NCBI GenBank assembly: GCA_963980225.1
Contig: CAXBYW010000004.1
Span: forward strand, 13,007-77,006
Direction of reading: 5' to 3'
DNA: 64,000 bases
Source of the DNA: an uncultured bacterium
Lineage (GTDB): Bacteria; Patescibacteriota; Microgenomatia; UBA1400; MFAQ01
Position numbers and translations under genes: made by a program. Positions 499-58,724 of the stretch are shown here, piece by piece. The notes under the pieces are model-generated. The model had not been told where the DNA came from and made no database searches. It worked only from the letters and a program-made list of their open reading frames with translations. Within the stretch, counting starts at the first letter, position 1. Every line of letters begins with the position of its first letter.

Positions 499-501
499 AA
501 T

Positions 502-828
502 TTAATTAACGGTTTCAATTTTTGGACTTAGGATGAAGTTGGCATCATCAAAGAGAATCTTACCAGCAATAGCGGATAGTACGAAGCTTATGGCAATTAT
601 CACTAGACCGATTAAAGCATGATTTATTTTTGTTTGAGCTATTTCTACTTTGGCTTTGTCGCCACCGGCGGTAATGTAGTTAAAACCGGCTATGATCATT
701 TGCCAGAGAGAAAATATTCCGGCTAAGACTATTATGAAAGTAATGATGGCGCTTAAGAAATTTGTTGTATCGCCAACTGTGCTGGGGATACTGGCTGGGG
801 GAGTAATGGTGCCGACGATGTTGTTCAT
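502..828 (-). CDS. T4SS pilin-like small membrane protein (paralog 2)
   Basis: 108 aa. Motif AGFNYITAGGDKAKVE lies between two transmembrane helices. Paralogous to 136-498 and 830-1156. Confidence 0.6.
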   Translation of the reverse strand: MNNIVGTITPPASIPSTVGDTTNFLSAIITFIIVLAGIFSLWQMIIAGFNYITAGGDKAKVEIAQTKINHALIGLVIIAISFVLSAIAGKILFDDANFILSPKIETVN

Positions 829-829
829 A

Positions 830-1156
830 TTAGTTTGGATTAAATAAATCGATGTTTACTATTTGTCCTACTATTGTAGTAATAAGATAGGCGCTAACTA
901 CGACTGCTAAGCCTAATAATGCATAGTTTAACATACGGGCAGATTGTTCTGCTTTGGCCTTGTCACCGCTAGCGGTAATGTAGTTAAAGCCAGAGATGAT
1001 GATGGTAAAGAGGGCGATTAAAGCGCTAAAAATGAGGAGGTTTGAGATTAAAGGATTCAAGAGGGTGGAAAAGGTGGCGTTGGTGCCACCGAGTTTTTCA
1101 CCAGGAGCGTATATTTCTGACAGATCCTTGGCAAAGACGGGGTTTATTAGTGACAT
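830..1156 (-). CDS. T4SS pilin-like small membrane protein (paralog 3)
   Basis: 108 aa. Motif SGFNYITASGDKAKAE. Separated from the previous paralog by only 1 nt (tandem). Confidence 0.6.
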   Translation of the reverse strand: MSLINPVFAKDLSEIYAPGEKLGGTNATFSTLLNPLISNLLIFSALIALFTIIISGFNYITASGDKAKAEQSARMLNYALLGLAVVVSAYLITTIVGQIVNIDLFNPN

Positions 1157-1216
1157 GAAGGATATTATAGCAATAATATAAATCTCAATGAGGAAATGAT
1201 GAGGAGAGTGCTAGAT

Positions 1217-1909
1217 TTAGTTGCCACCAAAGCGACGGTTGCGGGTGGCGAAGCTTTTTAGGGCTGTTTTTAGTTTTTCAGGGGTGAAGTCTGGGAAGAG
1301 GGTGTTGGTGAAATAGAGTTCGGAGTAGACTGATTGCCAAGGTAGATATCCAGAGAGGCGTTTGTCTCCACCGGTTCTTATGATTAGGTCGGGGTCGGGA
1401 ATACCCGAAGTATCTAAATGAGAAGAAAAGAGTTTTTCGTTGATTTTGTCAACGGGGATGTTTTCTTTAACAATCTTTTTTACGGCCCTTAGTATTTCGT
1501 TTCTACCACCGTAGTTTAAGGCGAAGGTGACGGTTATTTGAGAGTTTTTCTTTGATTGTTGGATCATCTCTAGAGATTTTTGAGCAATGTCTTTGGGGAA
1601 ACGATCTATTTCACCTAAGATTCTTAGTCTGGCTCCTTGCTTGATGAATTTTTTAGCTAGGATGTTTAGAGCGAAACGAAAGACTTTGAATAGTTCGGCA
1701 ATCTCTTTTTTGTCTCTTTTCCAGTTTTCGGTGGAAAAAGCCCAAAAGGTAACAAACGGGATTTTTTGTTTAACACACTCTTCTATTAAGGGTTCGATAA
1801 CTTGTTCGGCTGCTTGTTGGTGACCTTTAACAACAGGTAGGTTCTTTTTTTTGGCCCAACGACGATTACCGTCCATGATTATGGCCACGTGATTTAAAGG
1901 TGTTTTCAT
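1217..1909 (-). CDS. uppS: Undecaprenyl pyrophosphate synthase (isoprenyl transferase)
   Basis: 230 aa with UppS hallmarks: N-terminal HVAIIMDGNRRWA, FSTENWKR and a C-terminal RTGG..RLSGYLPWQ region. Confidence 0.9.
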   Translation of the reverse strand: MKTPLNHVAIIMDGNRRWAKKKNLPVVKGHQQAAEQVIEPLIEECVKQKIPFVTFWAFSTENWKRDKKEIAELFKVFRFALNILAKKFIKQGARLRILGEIDRFPKDIAQKSLEMIQQSKKNSQITVTFALNYGGRNEILRAVKKIVKENIPVDKINEKLFSSHLDTSGIPDPDLIIRTGGDKRLSGYLPWQSVYSELYFTNTLFPDFTPEKLKTALKSFATRNRRFGGN

Positions 1910-1922
1910 GAAAGGTATTTTA

Positions 1923-2255
1923 TCAGATCAATGGGTCAGCCTGGAAGCCTATGATTGTAGAGACCACTCTGACTATGAGGAAACTGGCAATGACAACTAT
2001 AATACCAACAAGTCCGTTCATGAGTCTGTTGGAAGCAGCAGCGGTTTTTTTTGGATCTCCGGATGAGAACATGTAGCTCCAACCAGCAAGAAGGGTGTTT
2101 ACAAAAAAAGCCATACCAGCAACGAAGATTAAAAGATTGATGATGGAGAAACTGGTGCCTGCTCCACCCTTATTAGTAAAGATGTCTGCCAAGCTACTGT
2201 CTACAGGAATGTTTGTGGCTGGGTTTTGGTTTTTGATGGTGTCTATTATTGACAT
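1923..2255 (-). CDS. T4SS pilin-like small membrane protein (paralog 4)
   Basis: 110 aa. Two TM helices with loop motif AGWSYMFSSGDPKKTAAA. Confidence 0.55.
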   Translation of the reverse strand: MSIIDTIKNQNPATNIPVDSSLADIFTNKGGAGTSFSIINLLIFVAGMAFFVNTLLAGWSYMFSSGDPKKTAAASNRLMNGLVGIIVVIASFLIVRVVSTIIGFQADPLI

Positions 2256-2263
2256 ATGTTTTT

Positions 2264-2605
2264 TTAAAAACCTGGAATACTTAGTATTTTAACACCGATT
2301 AAGTTTAGGAGAACGATAGAGAGGATGATGAACAAAAGACCGGAGACGGCAGAGCCAATAATTTCTTTACCTTGGTTTAGTTTGTCTGGGTTGCCAGCGG
2401 AAGTAGTAACGATAAAAGTGCCGAAAAGAATAAGAAGTAAGGCAATACCACCACCTAAACCTATGGCTAGTTCTAAGAAACTACCAACAAAACCACCAGA
2501 TGCTACATCTGTGGAGATACAACCTAGGGCGGTGTCGATACCTTTGTCTCCACTAGGAGTGATACATTGAGGGGAAGCGGCGTAGACAGACTTTATTAAA
2601 CTCAT
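2264..2605 (-). CDS. T4SS pilin-like small membrane protein (paralog 5, divergent)
   Basis: 113 aa. N-terminal signal/TM, Cys pair, and TM helices flanking TSAGNPDKLNQGKE. More diverged member of the same array. Confidence 0.5.
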   Translation of the reverse strand: MSLIKSVYAASPQCITPSGDKGIDTALGCISTDVASGGFVGSFLELAIGLGGGIALLLILFGTFIVTTSAGNPDKLNQGKEIIGSAVSGLLFIILSIVLLNLIGVKILSIPGF

Positions 2606-2635: not shown

Positions 2636-4375
2636 TTGGTGGTAGATATTATGAAGAAGATATTGGGGGTGGCACTATTGGTGGGGATGATGCTGGGGAT
2701 GATGGGAGTGGTGAAGGCAGATGGTTGTGAAGGGAAGACGGGAGAGCCCTTATACACTTGTTTGGGGGAGGAGATATCAAGATTGAGTAGAGATTTGCAG
2801 TTAAGTAGAGATGCAACTAGTCCCTTGGAGACAGAAGCGTCTAGATTAGGAACACAAATTAGTTCCATTCAGTATCAGATTAATCAGGCAAAGGTAAAAC
2901 AAACAGAATTGGCTGCAGGGATTAGTGAAAGAGAGTACCTTTTAAGTGAGCAGTATTTAGTGTTGGCTGAGAAAACAAAGGCTTTTTACAAGAGAATTAG
3001 AAGTAGCTCTACTTTAGCGATGTTGATGACGTCTGTGGGGACCGGGTCGTTGAGTAGGGAGTTTAATTACAGGAATGAAGCAAATGAAAGAGACAGGCAG
3101 ATTATTGTTCGGTTGTCTAGTGAGATTGGGCAGTTAGAGAGTGATAAGCAGGATCTGGAAATTCAAAGAGAGAAGTTGTCTGGGCTTCAAGCAAGCTTAG
3201 ACAAGCAGAAGAGTTTTTATGATGGGGAGATAGGTAAGGCTAAGGCGTATCAAACAGACTTGTCGGGTAAGATTGCAGCTCTGTCTGCTAAACAACAAGA
3301 AGTGTTGGGAGAGAAGAGTGGGACCTTCCAGACAACTGTAGGTGATGTGCCTTTAGCGGATGACCCTAATTCCAGACCGGATTACAATCCTGGATTTTCA
3401 CCAGCGTTTGCGGCTTTTTCTTTTGGAGCACCACATTTTAAGGGTATGAGTCAGTATGGGGCGTTTGGTAGAGCAAAGGATGGTCAAAGTTATGAAGATA
3501 TTTTACGAGCATATTATGGAGGAGGAATAGAGATAAGGAGTGTGGACGTAAACACAAAGATAACTGTTGATGGTTATGGGAGCTATTCAATTGATGATTA
3601 TGCGAAACGAATTTATGAAGTGCCGGGTAGTTGGGGGGATGAGGGAGGAATGGCTGCTTTAGAGGCTCAGGCAATTGCGGCTAGAAGTTATGCTTTAGCT
3701 AGGGGTGGTTCGATTTGTGCGACTGAGGCTTGTCAGGTGTTTAAACCTAACCCTAAAGGAGGTAACTGGGAGACGGCGGTAAACAATACGAGTGGTAAGG
3801 TTGTGTACGCTAATGGTTCTCCTCTGTCTACTTGGTATGCTTCAACGAGTGGAGGATACCAAGAGTCCTATACCTCTAATGGTTACAGCACTCCTGGGTT
3901 TTGGGATACTAGTAATGGTAGAGATGGTTGGACAAGTGAAGCTTATGAAAAGAAAGCTGGAAGCCCTTGGTTTTATAAAGGGTGGTATAAGACAAGGTCT
4001 GGGGATAGTTGTGGCAGATCTCATCCTTGGTTAACAGGTGAGGAGATGGCAGATGTTTTAAATGCTTGGGTGGTGGTGGTAAAGAGAGGAGAGAGTGATG
4101 ATAGGGTTTTACCTTTAGGTGGTTGTTGGGGAGGTAATCCATATAGTGTGAGTGAGATGAAGGATAAGGCAAATAGTTCTGGGGAGGGCTATTCAAATGT
4201 TACGGGAGTAGTAAGAGTAGATTACTCTAATAGTGGGTATACACAAACTGTGGTTTTTGGAACAGACAGAGGTGAAGTAAGTATTAATGGTTTGGAGTTT
4301 AAGAAAGCATTTAATTTAAGAGCGCCAGGTAGGATTGCCTTGAAATCTGGGTTATTAAATATAGAGCAAAAGTAA
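2636..4375 (+). CDS. SpoIID/LytB-domain protein with N-terminal signal peptide and coiled-coil region
   Basis: 579 aa. Signal/TM at N-terminus, then a long coiled-coil. SpoIID-like motifs are present: GMSQYGAFG, QAIAARSYAL, ACQVF, STSGGY. Confidence 0.7.
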   Translation: MVVDIMKKILGVALLVGMMLGMMGVVKADGCEGKTGEPLYTCLGEEISRLSRDLQLSRDATSPLETEASRLGTQISSIQYQINQAKVKQTELAAGISEREYLLSEQYLVLAEKTKAFYKRIRSSSTLAMLMTSVGTGSLSREFNYRNEANERDRQIIVRLSSEIGQLESDKQDLEIQREKLSGLQASLDKQKSFYDGEIGKAKAYQTDLSGKIAALSAKQQEVLGEKSGTFQTTVGDVPLADDPNSRPDYNPGFSPAFAAFSFGAPHFKGMSQYGAFGRAKDGQSYEDILRAYYGGGIEIRSVDVNTKITVDGYGSYSIDDYAKRIYEVPGSWGDEGGMAALEAQAIAARSYALARGGSICATEACQVFKPNPKGGNWETAVNNTSGKVVYANGSPLSTWYASTSGGYQESYTSNGYSTPGFWDTSNGRDGWTSEAYEKKAGSPWFYKGWYKTRSGDSCGRSHPWLTGEEMADVLNAWVVVVKRGESDDRVLPLGGCWGGNPYSVSEMKDKANSSGEGYSNVTGVVRVDYSNSGYTQTVVFGTDRGEVSINGLEFKKAFNLRAPGRIALKSGLLNIEQK

Positions 4376-7198: not shown

Positions 7199-7636
7199 AT
7201 GAGGTTGGTAAACAGAAAAGCAAAAAGAGATTATGAGATTGTAGAAAGCTTGGAAGCTGGAGTAGTGTTGACTGGTAGTGAAGTGAAAAGTTTGAGGGTG
7301 GGACAAGGTAATTTGTTGGGTTCTAGAGTGATACTTAGAGATGGTGAGGTTTGGTTGAGTGGTTTTTCCATACCAAGGTATAGATTTGATGGTAGGGAGG
7401 ATGAATATGATCCTGATAGGATTAAAAAATTGTTGATAAAACAAGCAGAAAAACGACGTTTGGAGGTAAAATCCAAGAGTGGAGGTTTGACCATGATACC
7501 TCTGTCGGTGTATAATAAGCGAGGATTGATAAAAGTGGAGATAGGTTTGGTAAGAGGAAAGAAAAAATATGAAAAACGAGAGGTCCTTAAGAAAAGGAAA
7601 CAAAAAAGAGACCTGTCCAGAAGATTTAAAACTTAA
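7199..7636 (+). CDS. smpB: SsrA-binding protein SmpB
   Basis: 145 aa matching SmpB throughout (RKAKRDYEI..E.GVVLTGSEVKSLR..G.LLG). tmRNA gene lies immediately downstream. Confidence 0.9.
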   Translation: MRLVNRKAKRDYEIVESLEAGVVLTGSEVKSLRVGQGNLLGSRVILRDGEVWLSGFSIPRYRFDGREDEYDPDRIKKLLIKQAEKRRLEVKSKSGGLTMIPLSVYNKRGLIKVEIGLVRGKKKYEKREVLKKRKQKRDLSRRFKT

Positions 7637-7650
7637 ATAGATAGAAAGAA

Positions 7651-7899
7651 ATGAAAATGAATATATTTTGGGATAAAGCTATGCCTGTTGCAGTATCTGG
7701 TTACTCTTGGGGTGAAGAGATCTGTAAGTTAAAAACTCAGAAGGCATGGAAGGCAAGTCTTAAACCTAAATTAAAGAAAATGGATAAGGGTGAGTTTGAT
7801 CTTTTTTTGGCGGCAGTGGTAATGGAAGCGGCTAAGAAGCAGGTAATGGGAGTAGATTTGACCGAAAAAGTGGAAATGTTTAGAGAACTTAGAAAGTAA
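7651..7899 (+). CDS. small hypothetical protein between smpB and ssrA
   Basis: 82-aa ORF with no recognisable motif. May or may not be expressed. Confidence 0.3.
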   Translation: MKMNIFWDKAMPVAVSGYSWGEEICKLKTQKAWKASLKPKLKKMDKGEFDLFLAAVVMEAAKKQVMGVDLTEKVEMFRELRK

Positions 7900-7905
7900 T
7901 TTTAC

Positions 7906-7934
7906 TTGATTTTTCAGGCTATTTTTGATATATT
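7906..7934 (+). promoter_or_regulatory. sigma70-like promoter for tmRNA (TTGATT - 17 nt - TATATT)
   Basis: -35 TTGATT at 7906-7911, 17-nt spacer, -10 TATATT at 7929-7934, about 10 nt upstream of the tmRNA 5' GGGG. Confidence 0.5.
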
Positions 7935-7944
7935 CTCTAATATT

Positions 7945-8349
7945 GGGGACGAAAGGTTTCGATGGAATAAGTACATTGACAGTGGCAAGCCGAGTCTTAG
8001 GACAAACTCGTTAATACTGACCTAAAAAATAACTGTCAACGAAGAGAAGACAGACAGCGTTATCGCTACAGCTCCAGTTTTTGCTGGTGTTGAAACCGGT
8101 CTCGCTCCCGCTTACCTTTTTGCGTAATCGGGTGTTTCTAGATGGTCTTTCTTTTAGGGATCGCTAGAGGCAGGTACAAACTTTAAGATGCTTTATTTTT
8201 GTTTAATTTAGGCAAAGATAAAAAAGACTTCTAAATTAACTTAAAACTGATTTTGTTTGTGGGTAGGTTTTGAGGAAAATACACAAACTAAGCTTGTAGA
8301 CATTGTTATTTATTTATTGCAGACGTGGGTTCGAATCCCACCGTCTCCA
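7945..8349 (+). ncRNA. ssrA: tmRNA (SsrA)
   Basis: 5' GGGGACG pairs with 3' CGTCTCC-A (tRNA-like acceptor). The 3' end has a T-arm GGTTCGAATCCCACC. An internal ORF-like stretch ends in TAA. Lies directly downstream of smpB. Confidence 0.8.
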
Positions 8350-8378
8350 CAAAGGTAAATGGTAAAATATTTTATGTT

Positions 8379-8464
8379 GGAGGGTTGGCCGAGTGGTTAT
8401 GGCGCTGGTTTTGAAAACCAGTGAGCGCAAGCTCTCACAGGTTCGAATCCTGTACCCTCCGCCA
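8379..8464 (+). tRNA. tRNA-Ser(UGA)
   Basis: Cloverleaf GGAGGGT../..ACCCTCC-G-CCA. Anticodon loop TTTGAAA (anticodon TGA). Long variable arm. T-loop TTCGAAT. Confidence 0.85.
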
Positions 8465-8488
8465 GAGGCTGGTATAATTCGTTGTATT

Positions 8489-8576
8489 GGAGGCGTCGCA
8501 TAGTCTGGTCAATTGCACAAGATTGCTAATCTTGAACCTTCGGGTTACGTGGGTTCGAATCCCACCGCCTCCGCCA
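8489..8576 (+). tRNA. tRNA-Ser(GCU)
   Basis: Acceptor GGAGGCG/CGCCTCC-G-CCA. Anticodon stem CAAGA/TCTTG with loop TTGCTAA (GCT). Long variable arm. Confidence 0.85.
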
Positions 8577-8600
8577 TTTTGCTTGTGCTAAACTTTATCT

Positions 8601-9128
8601 GTGAGTAATAAAGATGCGGTAGCTAGAGAGCCAGTAGATGAAATGGATATTGGAGAAGAGAAGGTGCTTCATACCTGGAAGTCTGTAGAGAGACCGTTTA
8701 AGAAATGGAATAAGGAGTTTTATAGTACGGTGATGGTTTTTGCTGTTTTGGTGAGTATAATTTTCTTTTTCATAGAAGGATTTATGTTGGTATTAGTAGT
8801 CTGGGCGGTGGTGTTTATGGCTTGGGCGATATCTAGGACAGAGCCGGGTATTAGGGAACATAAGATTACAGATAAAGGAATTAGGACAGGAGGAACACTT
8901 TATAGATGGGATACGATGTTGGTTTACTGGTTAGAGGAGAAATGGGACAAGAAACTTTTGAGAGTACTTTTAAGCAAGTTTCCAGGCCAGTTAGTGTTGG
9001 TTTATGATCAGAAAGAAGAAAAAAAGATTAGAGAAATCATGAGTAAGTTTTTGGCTTTAGAGAAACCGGAGGCTACATGGACTGATAGAGTAGTGAAGTG
9101 GTTTGGTGAAAAGGTGCCTTTAGAGTAG
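8601..9128 (+). CDS. hypothetical membrane protein
   Basis: 175-aa ORF with two adjacent TM helices, embedded in the tRNA cluster. Confidence 0.45.
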   Translation: MSNKDAVAREPVDEMDIGEEKVLHTWKSVERPFKKWNKEFYSTVMVFAVLVSIIFFFIEGFMLVLVVWAVVFMAWAISRTEPGIREHKITDKGIRTGGTLYRWDTMLVYWLEEKWDKKLLRVLLSKFPGQLVLVYDQKEEKKIREIMSKFLALEKPEATWTDRVVKWFGEKVPLE

Positions 9129-9151
9129 TTTCAAGGTAAAATATTGGGCAT

Positions 9152-9224
9152 GCGCCCATAGCTTAATGGATAGAGCACTTGATTGCGGATCAAGAGGTTA
9201 CAAGTTCGAGTCTTGTTGGGCGCA
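9152..9224 (+). tRNA. tRNA-Arg(GCG)
   Basis: 73-nt cloverleaf GCGCCCA../..TGGGCGC-A. Anticodon stem CTTGA/TCAAG with loop TTGCGGA (anticodon GCG, G37). CCA not encoded. Confidence 0.7.
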
Positions 9225-9236
9225 CAATAAAGGCAA

Positions 9237-9321
9237 GGAGGGTTGGCCGAGTGGTCTATGGCGTTGGTTTCGAAAACCAATGGGTGTTAAGCCCGCACAG
9301 GTTCGAATCCTGTACCCTCCG
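9237..9321 (+). tRNA. tRNA-Ser(CGA)
   Basis: Acceptor GGAGGGT/ACCCTCC-G. Anticodon loop TTCGAAA (CGA). Long variable arm. Near-duplicate backbone of tRNA-Ser(UGA). Confidence 0.85.
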
Positions 9322-9344
9322 CAGTATTTACTTGCAATCTTGAT

Positions 9345-10397
9345 TTGACACAATCTTCGGGTTTTGTTAGACTAAATATAGGTATGAGATGGGTTTTTGC
9401 AGATGATGATCAAGTAAGTTTTTTTAAAGAAATTAAAGAGAAATCTGGTTTATCTAATGAAGTATTGGGTAGTTTTATTGGTGTGTCTGGTAGGAGTTTT
9501 GGTGACTGGGTTAATAGAAAGACGCTGCCTTCAAAAGAAGGTGTGTTAAGGTTGGGTCAAAAGTTTAAGATAATGGTTCCAAAGATATTGGAAGAAAGAG
9601 AGGAATTTTGGAGTGGAAGAATTCACGGAAGGAAAGCGGCTTTAAAGAGATTGAAGATTTATGGTCCTCCAGGTACACCCGAGGGTAGGAGGAAGGGTGG
9701 TTTGGTTTCCTGGCAAAGAAGACGAGAAAATCCTGATGTTTACAGGAAGCTAGGGTGTATTGTAGGAAATAAATTTATTAAACCAAAAAAGTCAGAAGAC
9801 CTAGCTGAGTTTGTTGGTATTGTTTTGGGGGATGGCTGTTTAACTAAAGATCAGTGTCAGATTTCTCTTAACATGATAGATGATAAAGAATATGTGAAGT
9901 ATGTTGCAAGATTGGTTTCAAAGCTTTTTGGATATGATCCAACAGTGGCTGAATATCCAGGGCAAACTGTTACGAGGATTATTATTACAGGTGTGTATTT
10001 TATAAAAATAATGAAAAGTTTTGGTTTGATAGTGGGAAATAAAACCAAGAATCAGGTTGGTGTCCCGGAATGGATAAAATCTGATAAAAACTTTTTTCGT
10101 GCCTGCATTAGGGGTTTGTTCGATACTGATGGAGGTACCTTTACTCACAAGCATAAAGTAAAGAGATACGATTATTGCCATTTTGGTTTAACTTATACAT
10201 CAGCTTGTAAACCACTGCTGTCTAGTTTTAAGAAATGTTTGGAGGTTGATGATATCAAGACTTATGGAAAAAAAGATTGTCTGTTTGTGTATAGAGTTGG
10301 TGATATTAATAGTTTTTTTAATATATATCAGACGAAGAATTTAAAACATGTTTATAGATTTAAAGACCATCTAAGTCGATCGACTAGGCTTAATTGA
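9345..10397 (+). CDS. double-motif LAGLIDADG homing endonuclease-like protein
   Basis: Two canonical LAGLIDADG motifs are present: FVGIVLGDGCLTK and IRGLFDTDGGTF, spaced about 100 aa apart. Free-standing between tRNA genes. The annotated start overlaps the tRNA 3' end, so the true start is probably the internal Met (MRWVF). Confidence 0.7.
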   Translation: MTQSSGFVRLNIGMRWVFADDDQVSFFKEIKEKSGLSNEVLGSFIGVSGRSFGDWVNRKTLPSKEGVLRLGQKFKIMVPKILEEREEFWSGRIHGRKAALKRLKIYGPPGTPEGRRKGGLVSWQRRRENPDVYRKLGCIVGNKFIKPKKSEDLAEFVGIVLGDGCLTKDQCQISLNMIDDKEYVKYVARLVSKLFGYDPTVAEYPGQTVTRIIITGVYFIKIMKSFGLIVGNKTKNQVGVPEWIKSDKNFFRACIRGLFDTDGGTFTHKHKVKRYDYCHFGLTYTSACKPLLSSFKKCLEVDDIKTYGKKDCLFVYRVGDINSFFNIYQTKNLKHVYRFKDHLSRSTRLN

Positions 10398-10415
10398 GGT
10401 ATAATTTGTTATGTT

Positions 10416-10499
10416 GGAGGGATGCAGGGAATGGTTAACCGGAACGCTTGGAAAGCGTTTGCCCTAACGGGCTTGGGGGTTCGAGTCCCCCTCCCTCCG
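10416..10499 (+). tRNA. tRNA-Ser(GGA)
   Basis: Acceptor GGAGGGA/TCCCTCC-G. Anticodon stem AACGC/GCGTT with loop TTGGAAA (GGA). Long variable arm. T-loop TTCGAGT. Confidence 0.8.
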
Positions 10500-10540
10500 C
10501 AGAGTAAGTGTTTTTTAGTATTTAGGATAGAATAGGGATT

Positions 10541-53551: not shown

Positions 53552-53941
53552 ATGAGGCAGTGGTGGAAGACGTGTTATAGTTTATCTATGGCTACAATTA
53601 AGGAAGTTGAACCAAGATCAATATCGGTGGATGAAGAGGCACTAAAAGAAGTAGAAGGATATGTGGAAAGAGTAGAGAAGCAAATGGAGATTAAGAAGCC
53701 GTCTAATCCATTACAACCTTCTTCAGTAAAAACTCCTGCACCTAAAGTTCAAGATGATTTTGGTAATGTGGTAATGCAGGCAGCTCAGAAACAAGTTAAG
53801 GCAAAAATTATATTACCAATGGATGAAATAGAGGTAAAAGAAGGTTTGCATCATAAGATAATAGATGCTGCTAGATGGTTGGCAGAATGGTGTGTGTTAA
53901 TGATTAAAAAATATCCAGGTAGAGTGTTTTATAAACGATGA
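53552..53941 (+). CDS. hypothetical protein
   Basis: 129-aa ORF (likely starts at the internal MATIKEV) immediately upstream of, and overlapping, the T4SS-like ATPase gene. Confidence 0.35.
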   Translation: MRQWWKTCYSLSMATIKEVEPRSISVDEEALKEVEGYVERVEKQMEIKKPSNPLQPSSVKTPAPKVQDDFGNVVMQAAQKQVKAKIILPMDEIEVKEGLHHKIIDAARWLAEWCVLMIKKYPGRVFYKR

Positions 53942-56259
53942 TTGATCTAGCTAACATGGTGCAGTATGTTTTTGGAGTGGTTTTGGGGTTGTCATTGTTT
54001 TTGACGGTATTTATTGGCTTAGGGATAATATTGTTGCAGTGGCTTAGGTTCAAGAACAGAGAAGAGGTTAGTCTTAATTTTGTTTTACTAGAGTTGGCTG
54101 TACCAAGAGATAATGAGATTAAGATAGATGCGGCAGAACAGATGTTTGCGGCTCTTTCTTCTATTAAGAAGGGTGGCTTTTGGCAAAAATTTAAAGCTCA
54201 ACAGCATTTGTCTTTTGAGATAGTGGGCAAGAAAGAAGATATAAGATTCTATGTTTCATGTCATAGGGATAACATGGAACTTATTGATAAGCAGTTGGCT
54301 GGCGCTTATCCTGGTATTCAAGTGAAGGAAGTAGATGAGTACAATATTTTTGATGAACAAGGTAAGGTCGCTTTTACGGAGTTGGTTTTAAAAAATGAGT
54401 CTTTTAAGCCAATAAAGAGTTATAGAGAACTACCAGTTGACTCCTTATCTCAAATTACTTCTTCTTTAGCTAAGTTTGGAGATGATGAGGGGGCAGTGAT
54501 ACAGATGATTATTAGTCCAGCTGATCCTGCTTGGAGCAAGTCAGGAAGTGGTTTCTTGTCTAAAACAAAAAAAGATGAGGCTGATCCTGAGAAGGCAAGC
54601 TTCAAGATGAGTCCACAAGACATGGAAGCTATTGATCAAAAAGTTGGTAAGCCAGGTTTTTTGGCTAGTGTGAGGATTGTGTGTGTGGCGCCAAGTGAAG
54701 GTCAAGCAAAAAGTAACTTAAGTAACTTAAAAGGTGTTTTTGCTCAGTATTCAAGTGATTTGAATAATTTTTCTAGCAAGAAAATTAGATTTAAAAAAGG
54801 TTTCATGGTGGATTTTGTTTATAGATACCAATCGTTATTTGGTAATAATTCTGTTTTATCTAGTGATGAGTTGGCAACGATGTGGCATATGCCAAACAAT
54901 ACGATACAGACACCACATATTCACTGGTTAAATGCTAAGAGTGCACCAGCATCTGGTGGTTTCCCGTCCACTGGTCTCTGGTTGGGTAGATCAATTTACC
55001 GAGGTCAGACAAGAAATATATTTATGAGTGAGGCGGATAGGATGAGGCACATGTACATTATTGGACGAACCGGTACAGGAAAAACAGAGCTTTTAAAGCA
55101 GATGATTATTCAGGACATGAGGGCTGGTAATGGTTTGTGTTTTCTAGAACCACATGGTGATGGAATAGAAGAACTTTTGGAGATGGTGCCACCAGAACGA
55201 GCAGAGGATGTAATTGTGTTTGACCCAGCTGATGAAGAGAGACCAATCGGATTTAATCCGATGTCGGTTAAGAATATCGATGAGATTTATCAAGTGGCGA
55301 GTTCGATAATTAATCTGATGTACAAGCTTTATGATCCTAATAAGACGGGGATGGTTGGTCCTAGGTTTGAACATTCAGTCAGAAACATAATGTTAACGGT
55401 GGCGGTAGAAAAGGGTGCTGGTTTTGTAGAAATTGTGAGAGCTTTAACAGATAGTAAGTATGTTCAAGAGCTTCTACCAAAAGTAAAAGATCCGGTGGTA
55501 AAAAGGTACTGGACGGATCAAATCGCTCAGACAAGTGATTTTCATAAGAGTGAGGTCTTAGACTACATTACTTCTAAGTTTGGTAGGTTTGTTACAAATA
55601 GAATGATAAGAAATATTATTGGCCAAAGTGAGACGACATTGGACTTTAGAAAGGCCATGGACGAGGGGAAGATTGTGTTTTTGAAATTAGCTAAGGGTTT
55701 GATCGGTGAAGAAGACTCTAACTTTTTAGGATTAGTTTTGGCGCCGAAAATTTTACAAGCAGCTTTGTCTAGGCAAGACACGCCTAGGGAGCAAAGGAGA
55801 CCGTTTTACTTTTATGTTGATGAGTTTCAAAACTTTGCTACACCAGACTTCGCTCAAATGCTATCTGAAGCCAGAAAATATAACTTGGGGCTTATACTAG
55901 CTAATCAGTTTGTTAGTCAGGTGGATGAGCAAGTGCGAGATGCTATTTTTGGTAACGTGGGTACCTTGATGAGCTATCGGGTTGGAGTACAAGATGCAAG
56001 TATTCTAGCTAAGTCTTTTGCCCCAACGTTTAACGAAGGGGATTTGTCGAACATTGGAGCTCAAAATCTTTATGTAAAAACCATTGTTGATGGTACACCG
56101 GTGCCACCTTTTAGTATGAATGTGTGGAGAGACCTAGAAAAAGAGAGAGGACATGGTAGTGCAAAGGTGGCAACATTAGTTAAAGAACTGTCTTCTTTAA
56201 AGTATGGTAGGGATAGGGCAGAAGTTGAGGAGGAGATTTTGAGAAGATCTAAGCTGTAA
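53938..56259 (+). CDS. VirB4/VirD4-like type IV secretion system ATPase (FtsK/HerA-TraG superfamily P-loop NTPase)
   Basis: 773 aa. N-terminal TM hairpin, Walker A IIGRTGTGKTE near residue 375, Walker B FYFYVDEFQNF (DEF as in TraG/VirD4-type coupling proteins). The roughly 300-aa N-terminal domain is VirB4-like. Confidence 0.6.
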   Translation: MIDLANMVQYVFGVVLGLSLFLTVFIGLGIILLQWLRFKNREEVSLNFVLLELAVPRDNEIKIDAAEQMFAALSSIKKGGFWQKFKAQQHLSFEIVGKKEDIRFYVSCHRDNMELIDKQLAGAYPGIQVKEVDEYNIFDEQGKVAFTELVLKNESFKPIKSYRELPVDSLSQITSSLAKFGDDEGAVIQMIISPADPAWSKSGSGFLSKTKKDEADPEKASFKMSPQDMEAIDQKVGKPGFLASVRIVCVAPSEGQAKSNLSNLKGVFAQYSSDLNNFSSKKIRFKKGFMVDFVYRYQSLFGNNSVLSSDELATMWHMPNNTIQTPHIHWLNAKSAPASGGFPSTGLWLGRSIYRGQTRNIFMSEADRMRHMYIIGRTGTGKTELLKQMIIQDMRAGNGLCFLEPHGDGIEELLEMVPPERAEDVIVFDPADEERPIGFNPMSVKNIDEIYQVASSIINLMYKLYDPNKTGMVGPRFEHSVRNIMLTVAVEKGAGFVEIVRALTDSKYVQELLPKVKDPVVKRYWTDQIAQTSDFHKSEVLDYITSKFGRFVTNRMIRNIIGQSETTLDFRKAMDEGKIVFLKLAKGLIGEEDSNFLGLVLAPKILQAALSRQDTPREQRRPFYFYVDEFQNFATPDFAQMLSEARKYNLGLILANQFVSQVDEQVRDAIFGNVGTLMSYRVGVQDASILAKSFAPTFNEGDLSNIGAQNLYVKTIVDGTPVPPFSMNVWRDLEKERGHGSAKVATLVKELSSLKYGRDRAEVEEEILRRSKL

Positions 56260-56334
56260 AATTACCTGTAATTGACAAACCTATAGTAGTGCGGTATAAT
56301 AGGGTTAGTTCATTTACAATCCATTTTATTCCCT

Positions 56335-56895
56335 TTGGAGGTTTTTGTGAGAAAAAAAAGCGTTTTGTTTTCCTTTAAAATAAGCGAGTCTTATATGAAA
56401 GATTTAATTAAGCGTTTCGGGATAGGGTACGAATCATTACCGAACGGAGAAATAGGTAAATTATCACAAGGTGAGGTGTTTTGGCCACAATCTGAGCTAA
56501 AAACATCTTTAGGGGATATTTATGACAACTTACTACTTGTTGGCTTGAATGTGACTTCTGTGAAAATTACGAAATTAGTGAAGCAGAAGGGTGTTTCTTT
56601 CAAGGTGGCGGTTGTTCTGTCAAATACAGTAAGTTCTCAGCACCGAAAGGTGACAGATGTTGAATGGGAGCTGTTGTCAGAATTATTTAAAGACAATTTG
56701 TGGTATGCAATAGGATATCTTAACGAAGATACCAACCCATTATATGGCGAATCCAGACAACTGGTCTCCTTTAGTATGGTTGGAAGGAGACCTAAAGCTG
56801 AACATAAAGAGAGACAGAGAGTTGTTACCCTTGAAGGTACGGGGGATCCGGAATTGGTTTTTTCGGAATTCATCAAGTTATATCCAGGTGGATAG
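56335..56895 (+). CDS. hypothetical protein
   Basis: 186-aa ORF downstream of the ATPase. Upstream GGAGG is followed by GTG at about 56347, which may be the real start. No motif. Confidence 0.4.
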   Translation: MEVFVRKKSVLFSFKISESYMKDLIKRFGIGYESLPNGEIGKLSQGEVFWPQSELKTSLGDIYDNLLLVGLNVTSVKITKLVKQKGVSFKVAVVLSNTVSSQHRKVTDVEWELLSELFKDNLWYAIGYLNEDTNPLYGESRQLVSFSMVGRRPKAEHKERQRVVTLEGTGDPELVFSEFIKLYPGG

Positions 56896-57002
56896 TGGAT
56901 AGAAATAGTTTTAAACTTAAGACTCTGGCATTATGCTAGAGTCTTTTTTGTACAAATAGACAGGCATGAGATGTAGGAGTAAGTTATAATACTGTGGTAC
57001 AT

Positions 57003-57079
57003 GGGCCGGTAGCTCAGTTGGTCAGAGCGCGAAGCTTATACCTTCGTGGTCGCTGGTTCGAGTCCAGCTCGGCCCACCA
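57003..57079 (+). tRNA. tRNA-Ile(UAU)
   Basis: GGGCCGG-TA-GCTC..GAGC-G-CGAAG-CTTATAC-CTTCG-TGGTC-GCTGGTTCGAGTCCAGC-TCGGCCC-A-CCA. Anticodon loop CUUAUAC gives anticodon UAU. Confidence 0.8.
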
Positions 57080-57477
57080 TGAAATTAGATACAGAGAAAT
57101 TAGGTGTATTAGTAGATGAAATATTGAAGTTTAATGACCATCGTGGGTGGAGTCCTGTGGCAGAAGATTTAGCTAAGTCTGTAGTGTTAGAAAGTAGTGA
57201 ATTAATGGAACACTTTCAGTGGGATGCAAGTAGTGTTACCAGAGACTCTAAACTTCCAGAGAAAGATTTGGAAGAAATAGGGTTTGAAGTTGCAGATGTA
57301 TTTTGGTATTTAGTTCTTTTTTGTGAAGAAATGGATATAGATTTAGTTGAGGCTTTGGAAGAAAAACTAAAACACAATGACAAAAAATTTCCAGCAGAAC
57401 AATTTGGTGGTGAACATGATGAAAAATTTTATAGAGAACAAAAGAAAGCATATCGGGAAAAGAAGGGAGTCAAATAA
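57079..57477 (+). CDS. MazG-like nucleotide pyrophosphohydrolase
   Basis: 133 aa from the ATG overlapping the tRNA 3' end. MazG_2-type EExGE..E..AD pattern (LEEIGFEVADVFWYLVLFCEEM). Confidence 0.55.
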   Translation: MKLDTEKLGVLVDEILKFNDHRGWSPVAEDLAKSVVLESSELMEHFQWDASSVTRDSKLPEKDLEEIGFEVADVFWYLVLFCEEMDIDLVEALEEKLKHNDKKFPAEQFGGEHDEKFYREQKKAYREKKGVK

Positions 57478-57845
57478 TGAAAAAAATAAAGGACAGAGAA
57501 GAAAAAAAGGGGAGAGATAGACTTCTTTTGAAGTTTGATTCTCCGTTAATGGATGAGATGGGTGTGGAAGAAGATGTTGAGTCTAAAGATATTGTTATTT
57601 CTGGAAATTTAGGTATAGGAAATAAAGGTAATCCAGTGACTATTGTTGTAGAGGATGAGGTAACAGGGGAGAGTTTGGAGATGAGTCATGTAGAGTCTGC
57701 CTTTGTAGTGGTGGAGGATAAGAGGAAAAGTTCTTCTGGCTGGTTGGCAATAGCTGTCGGAGAGGTTAAGAAGTTAAACCAGGTACTAGGATTTTTAGCA
57801 GGGACGACCTTAGATGGATTAAAGAAAATGATTAGAAAGAATTAG
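57477..57845 (+). CDS. hypothetical protein
   Basis: 122-aa acidic ORF, start overlapping the upstream stop. Confidence 0.35.
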   Translation: MKKIKDREEKKGRDRLLLKFDSPLMDEMGVEEDVESKDIVISGNLGIGNKGNPVTIVVEDEVTGESLEMSHVESAFVVVEDKRKSSSGWLAIAVGEVKKLNQVLGFLAGTTLDGLKKMIRKN

Positions 57846-57848
57846 TTT

Positions 57849-58724
57849 TTAAAGCTCAGAAAGCTTAGGTTTCTCTTTTGACGGTTTGTTGGGAATGAAT
57901 TCTAGGTATTTTTCTGTAGTAGAAAGGCGTTTGTGACCAACAAGTTTAGAGATGTATACGAGTGGACTGCCAGATGACAACTGGTGAGCGATGAAGGTGT
58001 GGCGTAAGTCATTTACCTTTACATTGTCTATACCAGCTAGTTTGAAGTATCTGTCTAGGCTTGAACGGATATTTCTGATTAGGAAAGACTTGCCTGTTTT
58101 AGTAATAAAGATGTTTTGGGTCTCTGATTTTGGACGATCTTTTAGGTATTTCTCTAAGGCTTCTTTTGAAACTTGATTAAAAGGGATAGATCGTTCTGGA
58201 TGAGAATCATGAGCTATGATGGTGGCCTTATTTTCGTTTAGGTCTATATCGTTTATTCTTAGGTTAGCTAGTTCTGAGATTCTGATACCAGTTTGAAGAA
58301 GAATTTCTACGATAGCGAAAATTCGAGAATCATCTTTACAAGCATCCCTTAAGGCCCTGTATTCTAGTTTAGAGAGGATTCTTGGAGGCTTGACCTCATA
58401 TTTGGGGTGGGTGACTGCTTGAGCAGGGTTAGCTTTAATGGTTCCTTGTGACTGAAGGAAACTAAAAAATGACTTAATGGAGTTTATTTTTCTAGAAATT
58501 GATTTGGCTGTATAGTCTTTCTTGTCTAAGTGGTCCTTAAATGCATCAATATCTTCTGCCTTGACTTCATTAGTTGAAGTCTTGCTTAAGCTTTCTTTTA
58601 GAAAATTGCTTAACTGTTCTATGTCTTTGGTATAAGCTAAAATAGTAGCATTAGCCCTCCCAAGCGTGGCAAGGTGGGTTTTAAAATTACTGATTGATGT
58701 TGCAAAATTGTTGCTTGACTCCAT
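57849..58724 (-). CDS. tyrosine site-specific recombinase (XerC/XerD / phage-integrase family)
   Basis: N-terminal core-binding domain. Catalytic R..HxxR..Y region (LRHTFIAHQLSSGSPLVYISKLVGHKRLSTTEKYL). Confidence 0.8.
   Translation of the reverse strand: MESSNNFATSISNFKTHLATLGRANATILAYTKDIEQLSNFLKESLSKTSTNEVKAEDIDAFKDHLDKKDYTAKSISRKINSIKSFFSFLQSQGTIKANPAQAVTHPKYEVKPPRILSKLEYRALRDACKDDSRIFAIVEILLQTGIRISELANLRINDIDLNENKATIIAHDSHPERSIPFNQVSKEALEKYLKDRPKSETQNIFITKTGKSFLIRNIRSSLDRYFKLAGIDNVKVNDLRHTFIAHQLSSGSPLVYISKLVGHKRLSTTEKYLEFIPNKPSKEKPKLSEL

Follow-up and report, generated by a model that had tools for sequence, protein, structure and literature searches.

We analysed a 64,000-nucleotide stretch of a contig from an uncultured, ultra-small CPR bacterium, hereafter the window. 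Three open reading frames lie in tandem on the forward strand at 53552-53941 (129 aa), 53938-56259 (773 aa) and 56335-56895 (186 aa, TTG start), as given in the initial annotation, and the stop codon of the first overlaps the start codon of the second by 4 nt (ATGA). The features at this locus, together with those of a pilin array near the left end of the window, are:

136-2605, minus strand: five VirB2-like pilin ORFs (136-498, 502-828, 830-1156, 1923-2255 and 2264-2605; PF18895), the in-window part of a type IV secretion system (T4SS)
1217-1909, within the above: uppS, interrupting the pilin array
53588-53941, plus strand: small conserved partner ORF, 117 aa, or 129 aa if read from 53552 (orthology, position, HMM)
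53938-56259, plus strand: ATPase gene, 773 aa, DUF8128 and a T4CP-type (VirD4/TraG-like) motor (ORF call, Pfam, precomputed PF26449)
53959-54042, plus strand: single N-terminal transmembrane helix, aa ~8-35 (Kyte-Doolittle scan, AF2 models)
54073-54972, plus strand: DUF8128 domain, aa ~46-345 (Foldseek of the N-domain model, PF26449)
54973-56127, plus strand: RecA-like nucleotide-binding domain, aa ~346-730 (model secondary structure, Foldseek, PDB sequence search)
55063-55086, plus strand: Walker A, GRTGTGKT, aa 376-383 (motif scan, alignment)
55804-55836, plus strand: Walker B, FYFYVDEFQNF, aa 623-633 (motif scan, alignment)
56272-56945, plus strand: strain-specific unit apart from the system, with promoter, 186-aa ORF and terminator (promoter and terminator scan, homologue searches)
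56272-56300, plus strand: perfect sigma-70 promoter sequence, TTGACA-17-TATAAT (sequence scan)
56335-56895, plus strand: orphan ORF, 186 aa, TTG start (ORF list)
56919-56945, plus strand: terminator with a 12-bp stem (sequence scan)
57003-57079, downstream of the ATPase gene: tRNA-Ile
57477-57845, plus strand: 122-aa ORF (comparison with locus L005 and related loci)
57849-58724, downstream of the ATPase gene: tyrosine recombinase

The 773-aa protein, for which the homologue search recovered more than 4,500 relatives, was modelled with a pLDDT of 79.7. The N-terminal transmembrane hairpin proposed initially gave way to a single anchor, as indicated by hydropathy and by both AF2 models, in which aa 4-45 form one continuous helix. 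The basic residues R37, K39 and R41 follow the transmembrane segment, which therefore places the N-terminus outside and the remainder in the cytoplasm. The proposed Walker A and DEF-containing Walker B motifs were both found and showed no variation in an alignment of 31 homologues, with D628, E629, F630, Q631, N632 and F633 of Walker B all invariant. The ATPase is a bitopic membrane protein with one N-out transmembrane helix, a cytoplasmic DUF8128 domain with the predicted fold of a VirB4 N-terminal domain, and a P-loop motor.

To assign the motor, we compared it with the profiles of T4SS and related ATPases. TrwB_AAD_bind (31.4 bits, cut-off 20.5) and TraG-D_C (28.2 bits, cut-off 22) scored above their Pfam cut-offs, while none of the VirB4, FtsK and HerA models reached threshold. 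Eight of nine distant family members matched at least one of the T4CP families PF02534, PF10412 and PF12696 at E<=1e-3, with PF02534 reaching E=1e-15 along almost the entire model, and none of the nine matched the VirB4 models PF19044 and AAA_10. The best profile matches are those to T4CPs rather than to FtsK or HerA, and other T4SS genes are present in the genome, in agreement with the earlier proposal of a T4SS-family motor. In the AF2 model, a helical insertion at aa ~447-614 is the counterpart of the T4CP all-alpha domain; Foldseek matched the motor half to TrwBdeltaN70 (E~1e-12, TMt 0.60-0.65) and to Cagbeta (TMt 0.53), and a search of PDB sequences matched TrwB (E=5e-4). The motor half is of the VirD4/TraG type, and the T4SS ATPase class, initially described as unresolved, is that of the family combining Pfam DUF8128 with T4CP domains.

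The protein resembles T4CPs (VirD4, TrwB, TraG, TraD) in its P-loop motor, Walker motifs, all-alpha-like insertion, Pfam scores, TrwB-like fold and N-terminal membrane anchor, and its gene lies apart from virB4, as is often so for T4CPs. It differs in having one transmembrane helix where canonical T4CPs have two, and a DUF8128 domain of about 300 aa between anchor and motor where these have no VirB4-like domain. Furthermore, it is encoded by a core chromosomal gene off mobile elements with no relaxase nearby, and all its scores against the NCBIfam T4CP equivalogs are far under the cut-offs.

DUF8128 (PF26449; 2,033 representatives at 50% clustering) is annotated in precomputed data on a protein identical to the window ATPase. 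The domain is predicted to consist of two alpha/beta subdomains and ends in a conserved motif (...SVLSSDELATMWHMPN). Searches of PDB and Pfam with the front half gave no match at the sequence level. In Foldseek searches with the N-domain model, the top 13 PDB matches were all TrwK/VirB4 (best E=5.9e-6, TMq 0.48), with TrwK the sole significant match, and the BFVD matches included gp156 (E=1.3e-16) and the VirB4-like gp155 (E=3.8e-9) of phage G. The predicted fold of the front half thus matches only the VirB4 N-terminal domain. Of the two resemblances noted initially, the VirD4/TraG-type ATPase half is upheld by profiles and fold, and the VirB4-like front half by predicted fold and not by sequence. 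Domain order and predicted N-domain fold are shared with VirB4/TrwK of R388 and with the split TrsD and VirB4 of CPR and pGO1-type systems. The window ATPase differs from these in its VirD4-like motor, in having no sequence match to VirB4 models and no VirB3-like transmembrane protein encoded upstream, and in that a bona fide TrsD and VirB4 pair is encoded elsewhere in the same genome.

For the upstream ORF, the ATG at 53588 is the probable start, giving 117 aa; on two identical contigs it was picked by the gene callers, and it is where similarity to the orthologue begins. Its N-terminal part is variable and charged, whereas the C-terminal amphipathic helix is conserved (KIILPMDEIEVKEGLHHKIIDAARWLAEWCVLMIKKYPGRVFYKR). 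In a relative with a 76%-identical ATPase, the equivalently placed ORF shows 39% identity. Of 78 species-level loci, 77 have a small ORF that reaches or overlaps the beginning of the ATPase gene, and an HMM built from the C-terminal 60 aa matched 69 of these 77 at E<=1e-3. Codon usage is host-like, hydrophobicity is too low to indicate a transmembrane segment, and Pfam, NCBIfam, PADLOC and PHROG gave no match. On its position, motif and start/stop overlap, the ORF behaves as a real conserved partner of the ATPase, as had been suggested. Cagbeta-CagZ and TraD-TraM are likewise pairs of a T4CP and a small protein encoded beside it, a presumed motor-binding regulator or adaptor; the likeness is one of gene organisation, the 117-aa protein having no sequence similarity to CagZ or TraM.

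The suggestion that the downstream 186-aa ORF is also a partner did not hold. No homologue was present in 80 related species loci, a search of 5.8 billion proteins recovered only its own cluster, and the unit matched no Rfam family. With host-like codon usage and its own promoter and terminator, it is a strain-specific orphan unrelated to the ATPase pair. A further associate of the ATPase may, judging from locus comparisons, be the 122-aa ORF, which had no family match. It is 53% identical to the ORF immediately 3' of the ATPase gene in L005, was detected in most loci with ATPase identity >=70%, and in Collierbacteria-level relatives has the ATPase and the Xer-like recombinase as its immediate neighbours on either side.

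At least 587 species genomes carry the ATPase gene, at 54-91% protein identity, and the housekeeping synteny is kept across Microgenomates, with PBPs, NrdR/NrdJ, Xer, DivIC, TrpRS and FtsH as neighbours. Since GC around the gene (0.39-0.40) equals that of the remainder of the window and the neighbourhood is syntenic, its initial description as an island is unsupported. The gene order recurs in species with 54-76% identity, and variability is confined to a 1.2-kb stretch with the 186-aa ORF, the tRNA and a MazG-like gene. The ATPase gene is a core, syntenic chromosomal gene of a Collierbacteria-like CPR bacterium.

The pilin array noted at about 50 kb from the ATPase is real; it lies about 51 kb away and belongs to a cluster that runs past the left end of the window. 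In total, the 303-kb contig holds eight T4SS pilins, three of them outside the window along with four unannotated ORFs, a PrgI/VirB3-like ORF (308 aa), a TraC-like/TrsD ORF (228 aa) and VirB4 (569 aa; PF19044, AAA_10). The ATPase had been called the only recognisable T4SS motor in the window, and we found no other among about 37 scanned ORFs, which account for most of the intervals 1-33 kb and 53.5-59.2 kb; for 44-64 kb, gene names come from the precomputed annotation of identical contigs, and about 10 ORFs at 33-44 kb (117-343 aa) lay outside the scan. No relaxase-like gene was seen in the window or in 80 Microgenomates loci, and in none of the CPR loci seen did the ATPase gene adjoin T4SS genes. 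The arrangement on the contig agrees with the available part of Table S3 of PMC12102498, which gives for Woesebacteria and Collierbacteria a single t4cp1 match, unlinked to the cluster of VirB2 array, TrsD and VirB4 and at a distance of 66-91 genes from it.

We also examined relatives on phages and plasmids. Gp156 of Bacillus phage G is a full-length homologue (hhalign with a DUF8128 profile: probability 99.25%, E=5e-20), encoded directly 3' of the VirB4-like gp155 (PF19044, AAA_10), which is about 30% identical to CPR TrsD and VirB4, and near the TrbL/VirB6-like gp153. In SPO1-like phages and 0305phi8-36, small membrane proteins are followed by the homologue and then by a gene for Replic_Relax, the MOB_C relaxase family (PMC5357655). 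The ATPase matched PHROG 5156 (gp156, ORF201 of 0305phi8-36, SPO1-like gp27.4) at E=1.4e-87, and these proteins share the full-length arrangement of DUF8128 and T4CP-like ATPase as well as small membrane proteins encoded immediately upstream of the phage genes. Unlike the window ATPase, they have no fused transmembrane helix, and their genes are linked to VirB4-like and TrbL-like genes in phage G, or to MOB_C-type Replic_Relax and an actin-like gene in the others. On replicons of Streptomyces and Embleya, 1.3-1.7 kb separate the best C-terminal-half matches from VirB4-like matches. On megaplasmids, the distance between DUF8128 matches and VirB4-like genes is about 5 kb in Priestia and about 11 kb in Pontibacillus, where a pilin-like and an M23 peptidase gene are found in the region as well.

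Taken together, the pair at 53588-56259 probably encodes the coupling-type (VirD4/TraG-class) ATPase of a chromosomal, pilus-bearing CPR T4SS and a small co-translated partner. We read the ATPase as a T4CP because the TrwB_AAD_bind and TraG-D_C profiles, those of distant members and the TrwB fold match support this class, and link it to a T4SS because pilins, PrgI-like, TrsD and VirB4 genes share its contig and because phage and plasmid relatives are linked to VirB4-like genes. Counting against this are the housekeeping neighbourhood away from T4SS genes, the lack of a relaxase-like gene, the sub-cut-off equivalogs and the non-canonical single helix and VirB4-like domain. T4CP homologues are also commoner in Patescibacteria than VirB4 (2,918 of 3,035 genomes against 2,417; Quiñonero-Coronel 2025, PMC12102498). 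In Southlakia epibionticum, t4cp is non-essential while the T4SS genes are essential, and exaptation was raised by the authors (PMC12102498); Wang et al. could recognise neither a coupling protein nor a relaxase in its T4SS cluster.

A T4SS-independent housekeeping DNA translocase, exapted for septal segregation or dimer resolution with the neighbouring Xer and comparable to FtsK/SpoIIIE or Streptomyces TraB, would suit a strongly conserved core gene that is nearly universal and has housekeeping synteny, and likewise the exaptation and non-essentiality in PMC12102498. All 10 close loci and 15 of 27 distant Microgenomates loci encode a Xer-like tyrosine recombinase on the opposite strand, no more than 5 kb downstream, and DivIC usually comes next; PBP genes lie upstream, and PG_binding_1 and M23 peptidase genes downstream in Gracilibacteria and Peregrinibacteria. 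Xer linkage is missing in these two groups, however, and may therefore be inherited synteny. We consider such a translocase unlikely: FtsK_SpoIIIE scored 18.6 bits (cut-off 24), the ATPase has neither a gamma (KOPS-reading) domain nor a multi-TM N-terminus, FtsK was absent among the top 50 Foldseek matches, and phage and plasmid homologues accompany VirB4, VirB6 and relaxase genes. Collierbacteria genomes also hold a separate t4cp2 (TcpA/FtsK-like profile) match in the accessible table of PMC12102498, so that an FtsK-like protein is probably already there. The tRNA-Ile and tyrosine recombinase downstream could instead mark the remnant or cargo of an ICE, prophage or defence island, such as a MADS-like or HerA-like defence ATPase, given the PADLOC mad8 match on the ATPase half (E=9e-17), the PHROG 5156 match with its phage homologues, and the DUF87/HerA matches of distant members. 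This reading is largely refuted and scarcely credible, since composition is unshifted, gene order and distribution are those of a core gene, the variable stretch is short, the recombinase is XerC/D-sized and syntenic with DivIC, IMG/VR contigs yielded no relative, and further MADS or NurA-type partners are absent.

A second, divergent VirB4-class ATPase driving assembly or pilus biogenesis, its VirD4-like profile matches being superfamily cross-talk, would account for the VirB4 order of membrane element, VirB4-NTD-like domain and ATPase. TrwK/VirB4 also ranked first in the whole-model Foldseek search (E=1.2e-15, about 870 columns), TIGR00929 spans the whole C-terminal half (E=1.8e-7), and the short motif ILNtEELAxxfH can be aligned to the C-terminus of CPR TrsD. 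We judge this improbable: PF03135, PF19044 and AAA_10 match the true VirB4 of the genome but neither the window ATPase nor the nine distant members, TIGR00929 scored 29.8 against a cut-off of 643, T4CP families are above cut-off, TM-scores to TrwK are low (0.3) compared with TrwB (TMt 0.65), and hhalign to TrsD gave a probability of 9%. Quite improbable, too, is a DNA-uptake motor for competence or nucleotide scavenging through a ComEC or T4P-dependent route, since com genes were absent from the neighbourhood in every locus examined and linkage elsewhere is to VirB4, VirB6 and relaxase genes. It draws on the natural competence and missing nucleotide synthesis of CPR bacteria (PMC12857230; PMC12102498), on non-essentiality in S. 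epibionticum paralleling that of comEC (PMC12102498, PMC12857230), and on weak NCBIfam matches to CedD (E=1.9e-6) and CedB, ATPases of archaeal DNA import; these matches are far under cut-off and confined to the P-loop region.

As a coupling-type ATPase, the protein would, by analogy with TrwB and VirB4, form a membrane-attached hexamer with the VirB4-like front domain as a docking module, feeding a macromolecular substrate (DNA or protein) by ATP hydrolysis into or out of a channel built from the VirB4/TrsD, PrgI/VirB3-like and pilin genes 51-64 kb away. The amphipathic C-terminal helix of the small protein may, given the gene organisation, bind the ATPase and so adapt or regulate it. The DUF8128-T4CP family very probably corresponds to the T4CP homologues, or 't4cp1, 75% coverage' matches, in the available part of PMC12102498. 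The window ATPase is no different in kind but a member, sharing the phylum, the position unlinked to the VirB2-array/TrsD/VirB4 cluster, the public name 'type IV secretion system DNA-binding domain-containing protein' and, on an identical protein, DUF8128. The VirB4-NTD-like predicted fold of DUF8128, the phage and plasmid relatives and the small partner conserved in Microgenomates do not appear in the portion of that text available. The ATPase is an informative member of an already catalogued family whose function is only predicted, and the pilins in the window belong to the chromosomal T4SS that it most likely serves.

The ORF list placed three genes at exactly the coordinates of the initial annotation: an ATPase of 773 aa and a small ORF on either side of it. 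The stop of the upstream ORF and the start of the ATPase overlap in the sequence ATGA. These and the adjacent features were located as follows.

53552-53941, + strand: upstream ORF, 129 aa (ORF list)
53938-56259, + strand: ATPase, 773 aa (ORF list)
ATPase residues 376-383: Walker A, GRTGTGKT, invariant in 31 homologues
ATPase residues 623-633: Walker B, FYFYVDEFQNF (hhhhDE at residues 623-629), invariant in 31 homologues
56335-56895, + strand: downstream ORF, 186 aa, TTG start (ORF list)
57003-57079: tRNA-Ile, anticodon UAU
57477-57845: 122-aa ORF, 53% identical to an ORF that directly separates the ATPase from the Xer-like recombinase in Collierbacteria-level relatives

The homologues used to assess the invariance of the Walker motifs were 67-86% identical to the ATPase. 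Both motifs are intact, as in the P-loop NTPase of a type IV coupling protein (T4CP). The N-terminal hydrophobic residues form a single stretch (residues ~8-35), and both AlphaFold models predict one continuous helix at residues 4-45 followed by basic residues. The N-terminus as modelled is one N-out membrane anchor rather than the TM hairpin that had been proposed.

The motor is of the VirD4/TraG class because of its scores against T4CP families in Pfam, the matches of distant family members, its placement among PDB sequences and its TrwB-like model. The scores were 31.4 bits for TrwB_AAD_bind (PF10412, cut-off 20.5) and 28.2 for TraG-D_C (PF12696, cut-off 22). Eight of nine distant members matched at least one of the families PF02534, PF10412 or PF12696 at E<=1e-3, and PF02534 was above its cut-off of 20.1 in four of the nine, with up to 58 bits and a best match (E=1e-15) that covered nearly the whole model length. 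TrwB was the best relative in sequence comparisons with the PDB, and Foldseek aligned the C-terminal half of the predicted model with TrwBdeltaN70 at E~1e-12 and a TMt of 0.60-0.65. A helical block between Walker A and Walker B in the model (residues ~447-614) resembles the all-alpha domain of T4CPs. Whereas T4CPs have two TM helices directly before the motor, the ATPase has a single one followed by a DUF8128 domain of ~300 aa. Matches to NCBIfam were all sub-threshold (VirD4-like CD1115, SXT TraD, CedD and VirB4), with the equivalogs TraD and CD1115 far below their cut-offs.

Other identities for the motor were weighed with the same data. That the protein is a second VirB4 is contradicted by the Pfam and NCBIfam profiles: PF03135, PF19044 and PF12846 gave no Pfam match in the ATPase or the nine distant members (none to PF19044/AAA_10 in the latter), and TIGR00929 scored 29.8 against a cut-off of 643. 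The comparison with VirB4, TraG-D_C and TrwB_AAD_bind profiles that had been suggested for settling the class thus placed the T4CP models, and not the VirB4 models, above cut-off. The FtsK_SpoIIIE model (PF01580) scored 18.6 against a cut-off of 24 and covered the P-loop only; the predicted structure has no winged-helix C-terminus corresponding to the FtsK gamma domain, has one TM helix versus the polytopic FtsK N-terminus, and did not retrieve FtsK among its top 50 fold matches. The DUF87/HerA profile was above cut-off in most of the nine distant members and reached 16.3 against 23.2 in the ATPase itself; with an N-domain fold unlike that of HerA and no NurA-like neighbour, a HerA identity was rejected. 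The PADLOC model mad8 matched residues 368-670 only (E=9e-17), and a MADS defence system was dismissed given the housekeeping context and the lack of PADLOC matches on the flanking ORFs.

The front domain (residues ~46-345) belongs to PF26449 (DUF8128), according to the precomputed annotation of the identical protein and of all 120 closest and 120 distant homologues; a literature search for the name DUF8128 retrieved no paper. We modelled residues 1-345 separately (pLDDT 80). At E<=1e-3, TrwK/VirB4 of R388 was the only PDB protein related to this model, accounting for the top 13 matches (best E=5.9e-6, TMq 0.48), and the next matches were unrelated FAD oxidases. TrwK also ranked first for the whole ATPase model, with ~870 aligned columns. 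Among predicted viral structures, the N-domain model retrieved true family members and also, at E=3.8e-9, gp155 of Bacillus phage G, which is VirB4-like. The likeness to the VirB4 N-terminal domain rests on predicted structure, since searches of PDB sequences with the DUF8128 profile gave no match, Pfam scans member by member found no VirB4-NTD, and hhalign against an alignment of 76 CPR TrsD sequences aligned only a 28-column motif (prob 9%). TrsD of the CPR is the free-standing VirB4-NTD-like protein. The VirB4-like N-terminal domain of the initial annotation is thereby supported as a fold resemblance of the predicted structure and is not borne out at the sequence level.

The closest proteins carry the names Candidatus Collierbacteria, Woesebacteria or Patescibacteria. 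Among more than 4,500 scored relatives, the best 120 were all ~773 aa long and 67-91% identical. The identical protein was found on 18 contigs, including one of 303 kb. With one genome per GTDB species, relatives are encoded at at least 587 loci; 80 of these, with ATPases 54-75% identical, were kept. Many of their titles were uninformative or evidently mislabelled, while the informative ones named Collier-, Woese-, Shapiro-, Gottesman-, Levy-, Chisholm- and Beckwithbacteria. Family members of ~810-825 aa in Gracilibacteria and Peregrinibacteria were reached by way of a more remote representative, whose N-domain is 28% identical. A search of 1.84 billion cluster representatives with the N-terminal 345 aa alone retrieved 2,033, those of full length measuring 800-1,100 aa. 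The ATPase is a phylum-wide core protein.

The gene is surrounded by housekeeping functions, namely two PBP1a genes, genes for a Rce1-like protein, an M20 peptidase, NrdR and NrdJ, the ATPase with its upstream ORF, and genes for a Xer-type recombinase, DivIC, TrpRS, FtsH and others. This neighbourhood is syntenic in a relative with a 76% identical ATPase, and the GC content around the three genes (0.39-0.40) equals that of the whole window. Composition and synteny led us to reject an island or ICE origin, and the earlier designation of the region as an island, at odds also with a phylum-wide core protein, was abandoned. A different conserved order was seen in Gracilibacteria and Peregrinibacteria (loci L087-L089): DnaE, AspRS, the ATPase family gene, a PG_binding_1 protein and an M23 peptidase with SLH domains. 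Across the window, the GC skew was positive in every 2-kb bin (+0.16 to +0.58) with a monotonic rise, and most genes are on the + strand, which places the window inside a single replichore whose strand asymmetry is very strong. The segment at 7199-10500 contains SmpB, tmRNA (7945-8350) and a cluster of four tRNA-Ser genes and one tRNA-Arg gene, with a LAGLIDADG-type ORF of 350 aa (9345-10397) among the tRNA genes.

The relative with the 76% identical ATPase has an ORF in the corresponding position, to which the upstream ORF is 39% identical. The two are similar from the second ATG (53588) onwards, most clearly over the C-terminal ~45 aa. A small ORF ending at or overlapping the ATPase start was present in 77 of the 78 species loci with upstream DNA. 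Of these 77, 69 were detected at E<=1e-3 by an HMM built from the last 60 residues; the other eight have a related W-L...W helix as judged by eye. The ORF has host-like codon usage, is too weakly hydrophobic for a membrane span, and could not be assigned to a family in Pfam, NCBIfam, PADLOC or PHROG. The Gracilibacteria and Peregrinibacteria loci lack such an ORF and have AspRS ahead of the ATPase gene. Both the conserved position and the C-terminal HMM favour the earlier suggestion of a partner subunit, and within Microgenomates the upstream ORF is a conserved, probably co-translated partner of the ATPase.

The downstream ORF, proposed as a second partner, fared differently. None of the 80 species loci has an equivalent, and a search of 5.8 billion proteins retrieved only the ORF's own cluster. 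It was rejected as a partner and is an orphan gene specific to the strain. The unit (56272-56945) has a perfect sigma-70 promoter, TTGACA-17-TATAAT, and a strong intrinsic terminator of its own. An RNA gene in its place was rejected because the region matched no Rfam family and the codon signal was coding-like. In relatives the ATPase and the 122-aa ORF are adjacent; here the orphan gene, the tRNA-Ile and a MazG-like gene are inserted between them. The 122-aa ORF could be a further associate of the ATPase. A tRNA-Ile with the anticodon UAU is an unusual bacterial way of reading AUA. The mechanically listed GTG ORF at 57046 overlaps this tRNA, so the start of the MazG-like gene was set to 57079.

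The pilin array of the initial annotation was recovered as five T4SS (VirB2-like) pilins of PF18895 at 136-2605 on the - strand. Beyond the left end of the window on the same 303-kb contig, the T4SS cluster continues (locus L094, 10674-20363) with three more pilins, four unannotated ORFs, PrgI (VirB3-like), TraC-like/TrsD and VirB4. The eight tandem pilin genes are divergent and are interrupted by uppS. The VirB4 matches PF19044 and AAA_10 and is a genuine, separate VirB4 about 64 kb from the ATPase gene, the T4SS genes as a whole lying 51-64 kb away from it in the same genome. The four unannotated ORFs (645, 537, 716 and 230 aa) may be VirB6/VirB8-type channel parts, and a 579-aa SpoIID-domain protein (2636-4375), transcribed divergently from the pilin array, may be a peptidoglycan-remodelling component of the cluster. 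Searches with tblastn for a relaxase (Replic_Relax), an extra VirB4, TrbL and ALP in the window and all CPR loci returned the known TrsD/VirB4 loci only.

This layout agrees with the corresponding entries in Table S3 of Quiñonero-Coronel et al. 2025 (PMC12102498), in which Woesebacteria and Collierbacteria have one unlinked hit to the profile t4cp1, 66-91 genes from the cluster of VirB2 array, TrsD and VirB4. In that survey, 2,918 of 3,035 Patescibacteria genomes carried a total of 5,713 T4CP homologues, of which only 148 lay near virB4; the t4cp of S. epibionticum was not essential, and a possible exaptation was raised (PMC12102498). We infer that the t4cp1 hits represent the ATPase family.

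Relatives in phages and plasmids were linked to secretion genes. The ATPase matches PHROG 5156 (E=1.4e-87), and tblastn identified full-length homologues in the Bacillus phages G, 0305phi8-36, Stills and YungSlug and in SPO1-like phages. In phage G (L177, 86958-97081), the DUF8128 profile matches gp156 with prob 99.25% and E=5e-20. The gene immediately before it, gp155, encodes a VirB4-like ATPase (PF19044, AAA_10) ~30% identical to the CPR TrsD and VirB4 pair, and gp153 is TrbL/VirB6-like. In the SPO1-like phage Goe10 (L176) and in 0305phi8-36 (L178), an actin-like gene and small membrane proteins precede the homologue, and homologous Replic_Relax genes, of the MOB_C relaxase family (PMC5357655), follow it. 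In YungSlug (L180) an M23-type peptidase overlaps the start of the homologue, and related M23 genes are located downstream of the ATPase genes of Gracilibacteria and Peregrinibacteria. Large Bacillus phages thus carry a T4SS-like module with a DUF8128-T4CP homologue (PHROG 5156). Plasmid matches to the C-terminal half were annotated as "T4SS DNA-binding" or DUF87 proteins of actinomycetes, Bacillus, haloarchaea and Sulfolobus, and on Streptomyces and Embleya replicons they were located 1.3-1.7 kb from VirB4-like matches. On Priestia and Pontibacillus megaplasmids, the distance between DUF8128 matches and VirB4-like genes was about 5 and 11 kb, and a pilin-like gene and an M23 peptidase gene are also present in the Pontibacillus region. 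On a Haladaptatus halobius plasmid (L182, 8893-12842), DUF8128 is a separate ORF of 355 aa directly upstream of a 932-aa T4CP-like ATPase, a split that parallels that of TrsD and VirB4.

It is mainly because of this repeated, independent linkage to VirB4, VirB6 and relaxase genes that we prefer a role in type IV secretion. The strongest competitor is a housekeeping translocase similar to FtsK, consistent with the Xer/DivIC neighbourhood of the gene in all 10 close loci and in 15 of 27 distant loci. However, this linkage is class-specific and the family lacks FtsK features. Furthermore, Collierbacteria in the Table S3 entries have, besides the unlinked t4cp1, a hit to t4cp2, a TcpA/FtsK-like profile, ~20 genes from VirB4 (PMC12102498), so that a separate FtsK-like protein is probably present in these organisms. 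A competence motor finds no support in the gene context. A mobile-element or defence function fails on synteny, composition and missing partners, and a scan of IMG/VR yielded no close relatives of the ATPase. In type IV secretion, the ATPase would serve as a hexameric pump that docks on the T4SS, with substrate and direction of transport as further parts of the proposed mechanism.

The ATPase is thus a typical member of the orphan T4CPs of Patescibacteria, a widespread family that combines DUF8128 with a T4CP and had already been registered by Pfam and the 2025 survey. The initial annotation was largely right, apart from the island and the downstream partner. Three results extend the literature that we found: DUF8128 is predicted to have a VirB4-like fold, a micro-protein partner is conserved in Microgenomates, and relatives on phages and plasmids are linked to genes for VirB4, VirB6 and MOB_C. 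A bolder reading, which we put forward as speculative and rather unlikely, is that DUF8128-T4CP proteins are a hybrid third class of T4SS motor, with a VirB4-type docking domain and a VirD4-type pump that are fused or, in haloarchaea, adjacent, and with a dedicated micro-protein partner in Microgenomates. In CPR bacteria, such a motor would drive the passage of host-derived DNA or other macromolecules through the essential T4SS with its pilus, and large Bacillus phages would have captured the module together with a CPR-like VirB4. If true, this would explain the near-universal retention of the family in minimal CPR genomes.

The CPR/Patescibacteria are host-dependent and have retained a T4SS, which proved essential in the single species examined, and the question is what its cargo is and which motor feeds it. 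The ATPase family is highly conserved and present in almost every CPR genome. With a VirD4-class motor carrying a putative docking domain of VirB4-like predicted fold, a conserved and probably co-translated micro-protein in Microgenomates, and phage and plasmid relatives beside VirB4, VirB6 and relaxase genes, the question of the orphan T4CP becomes open to experiment, through interaction tests, deletion in Saccharibacteria and tractable Bacillus phages.
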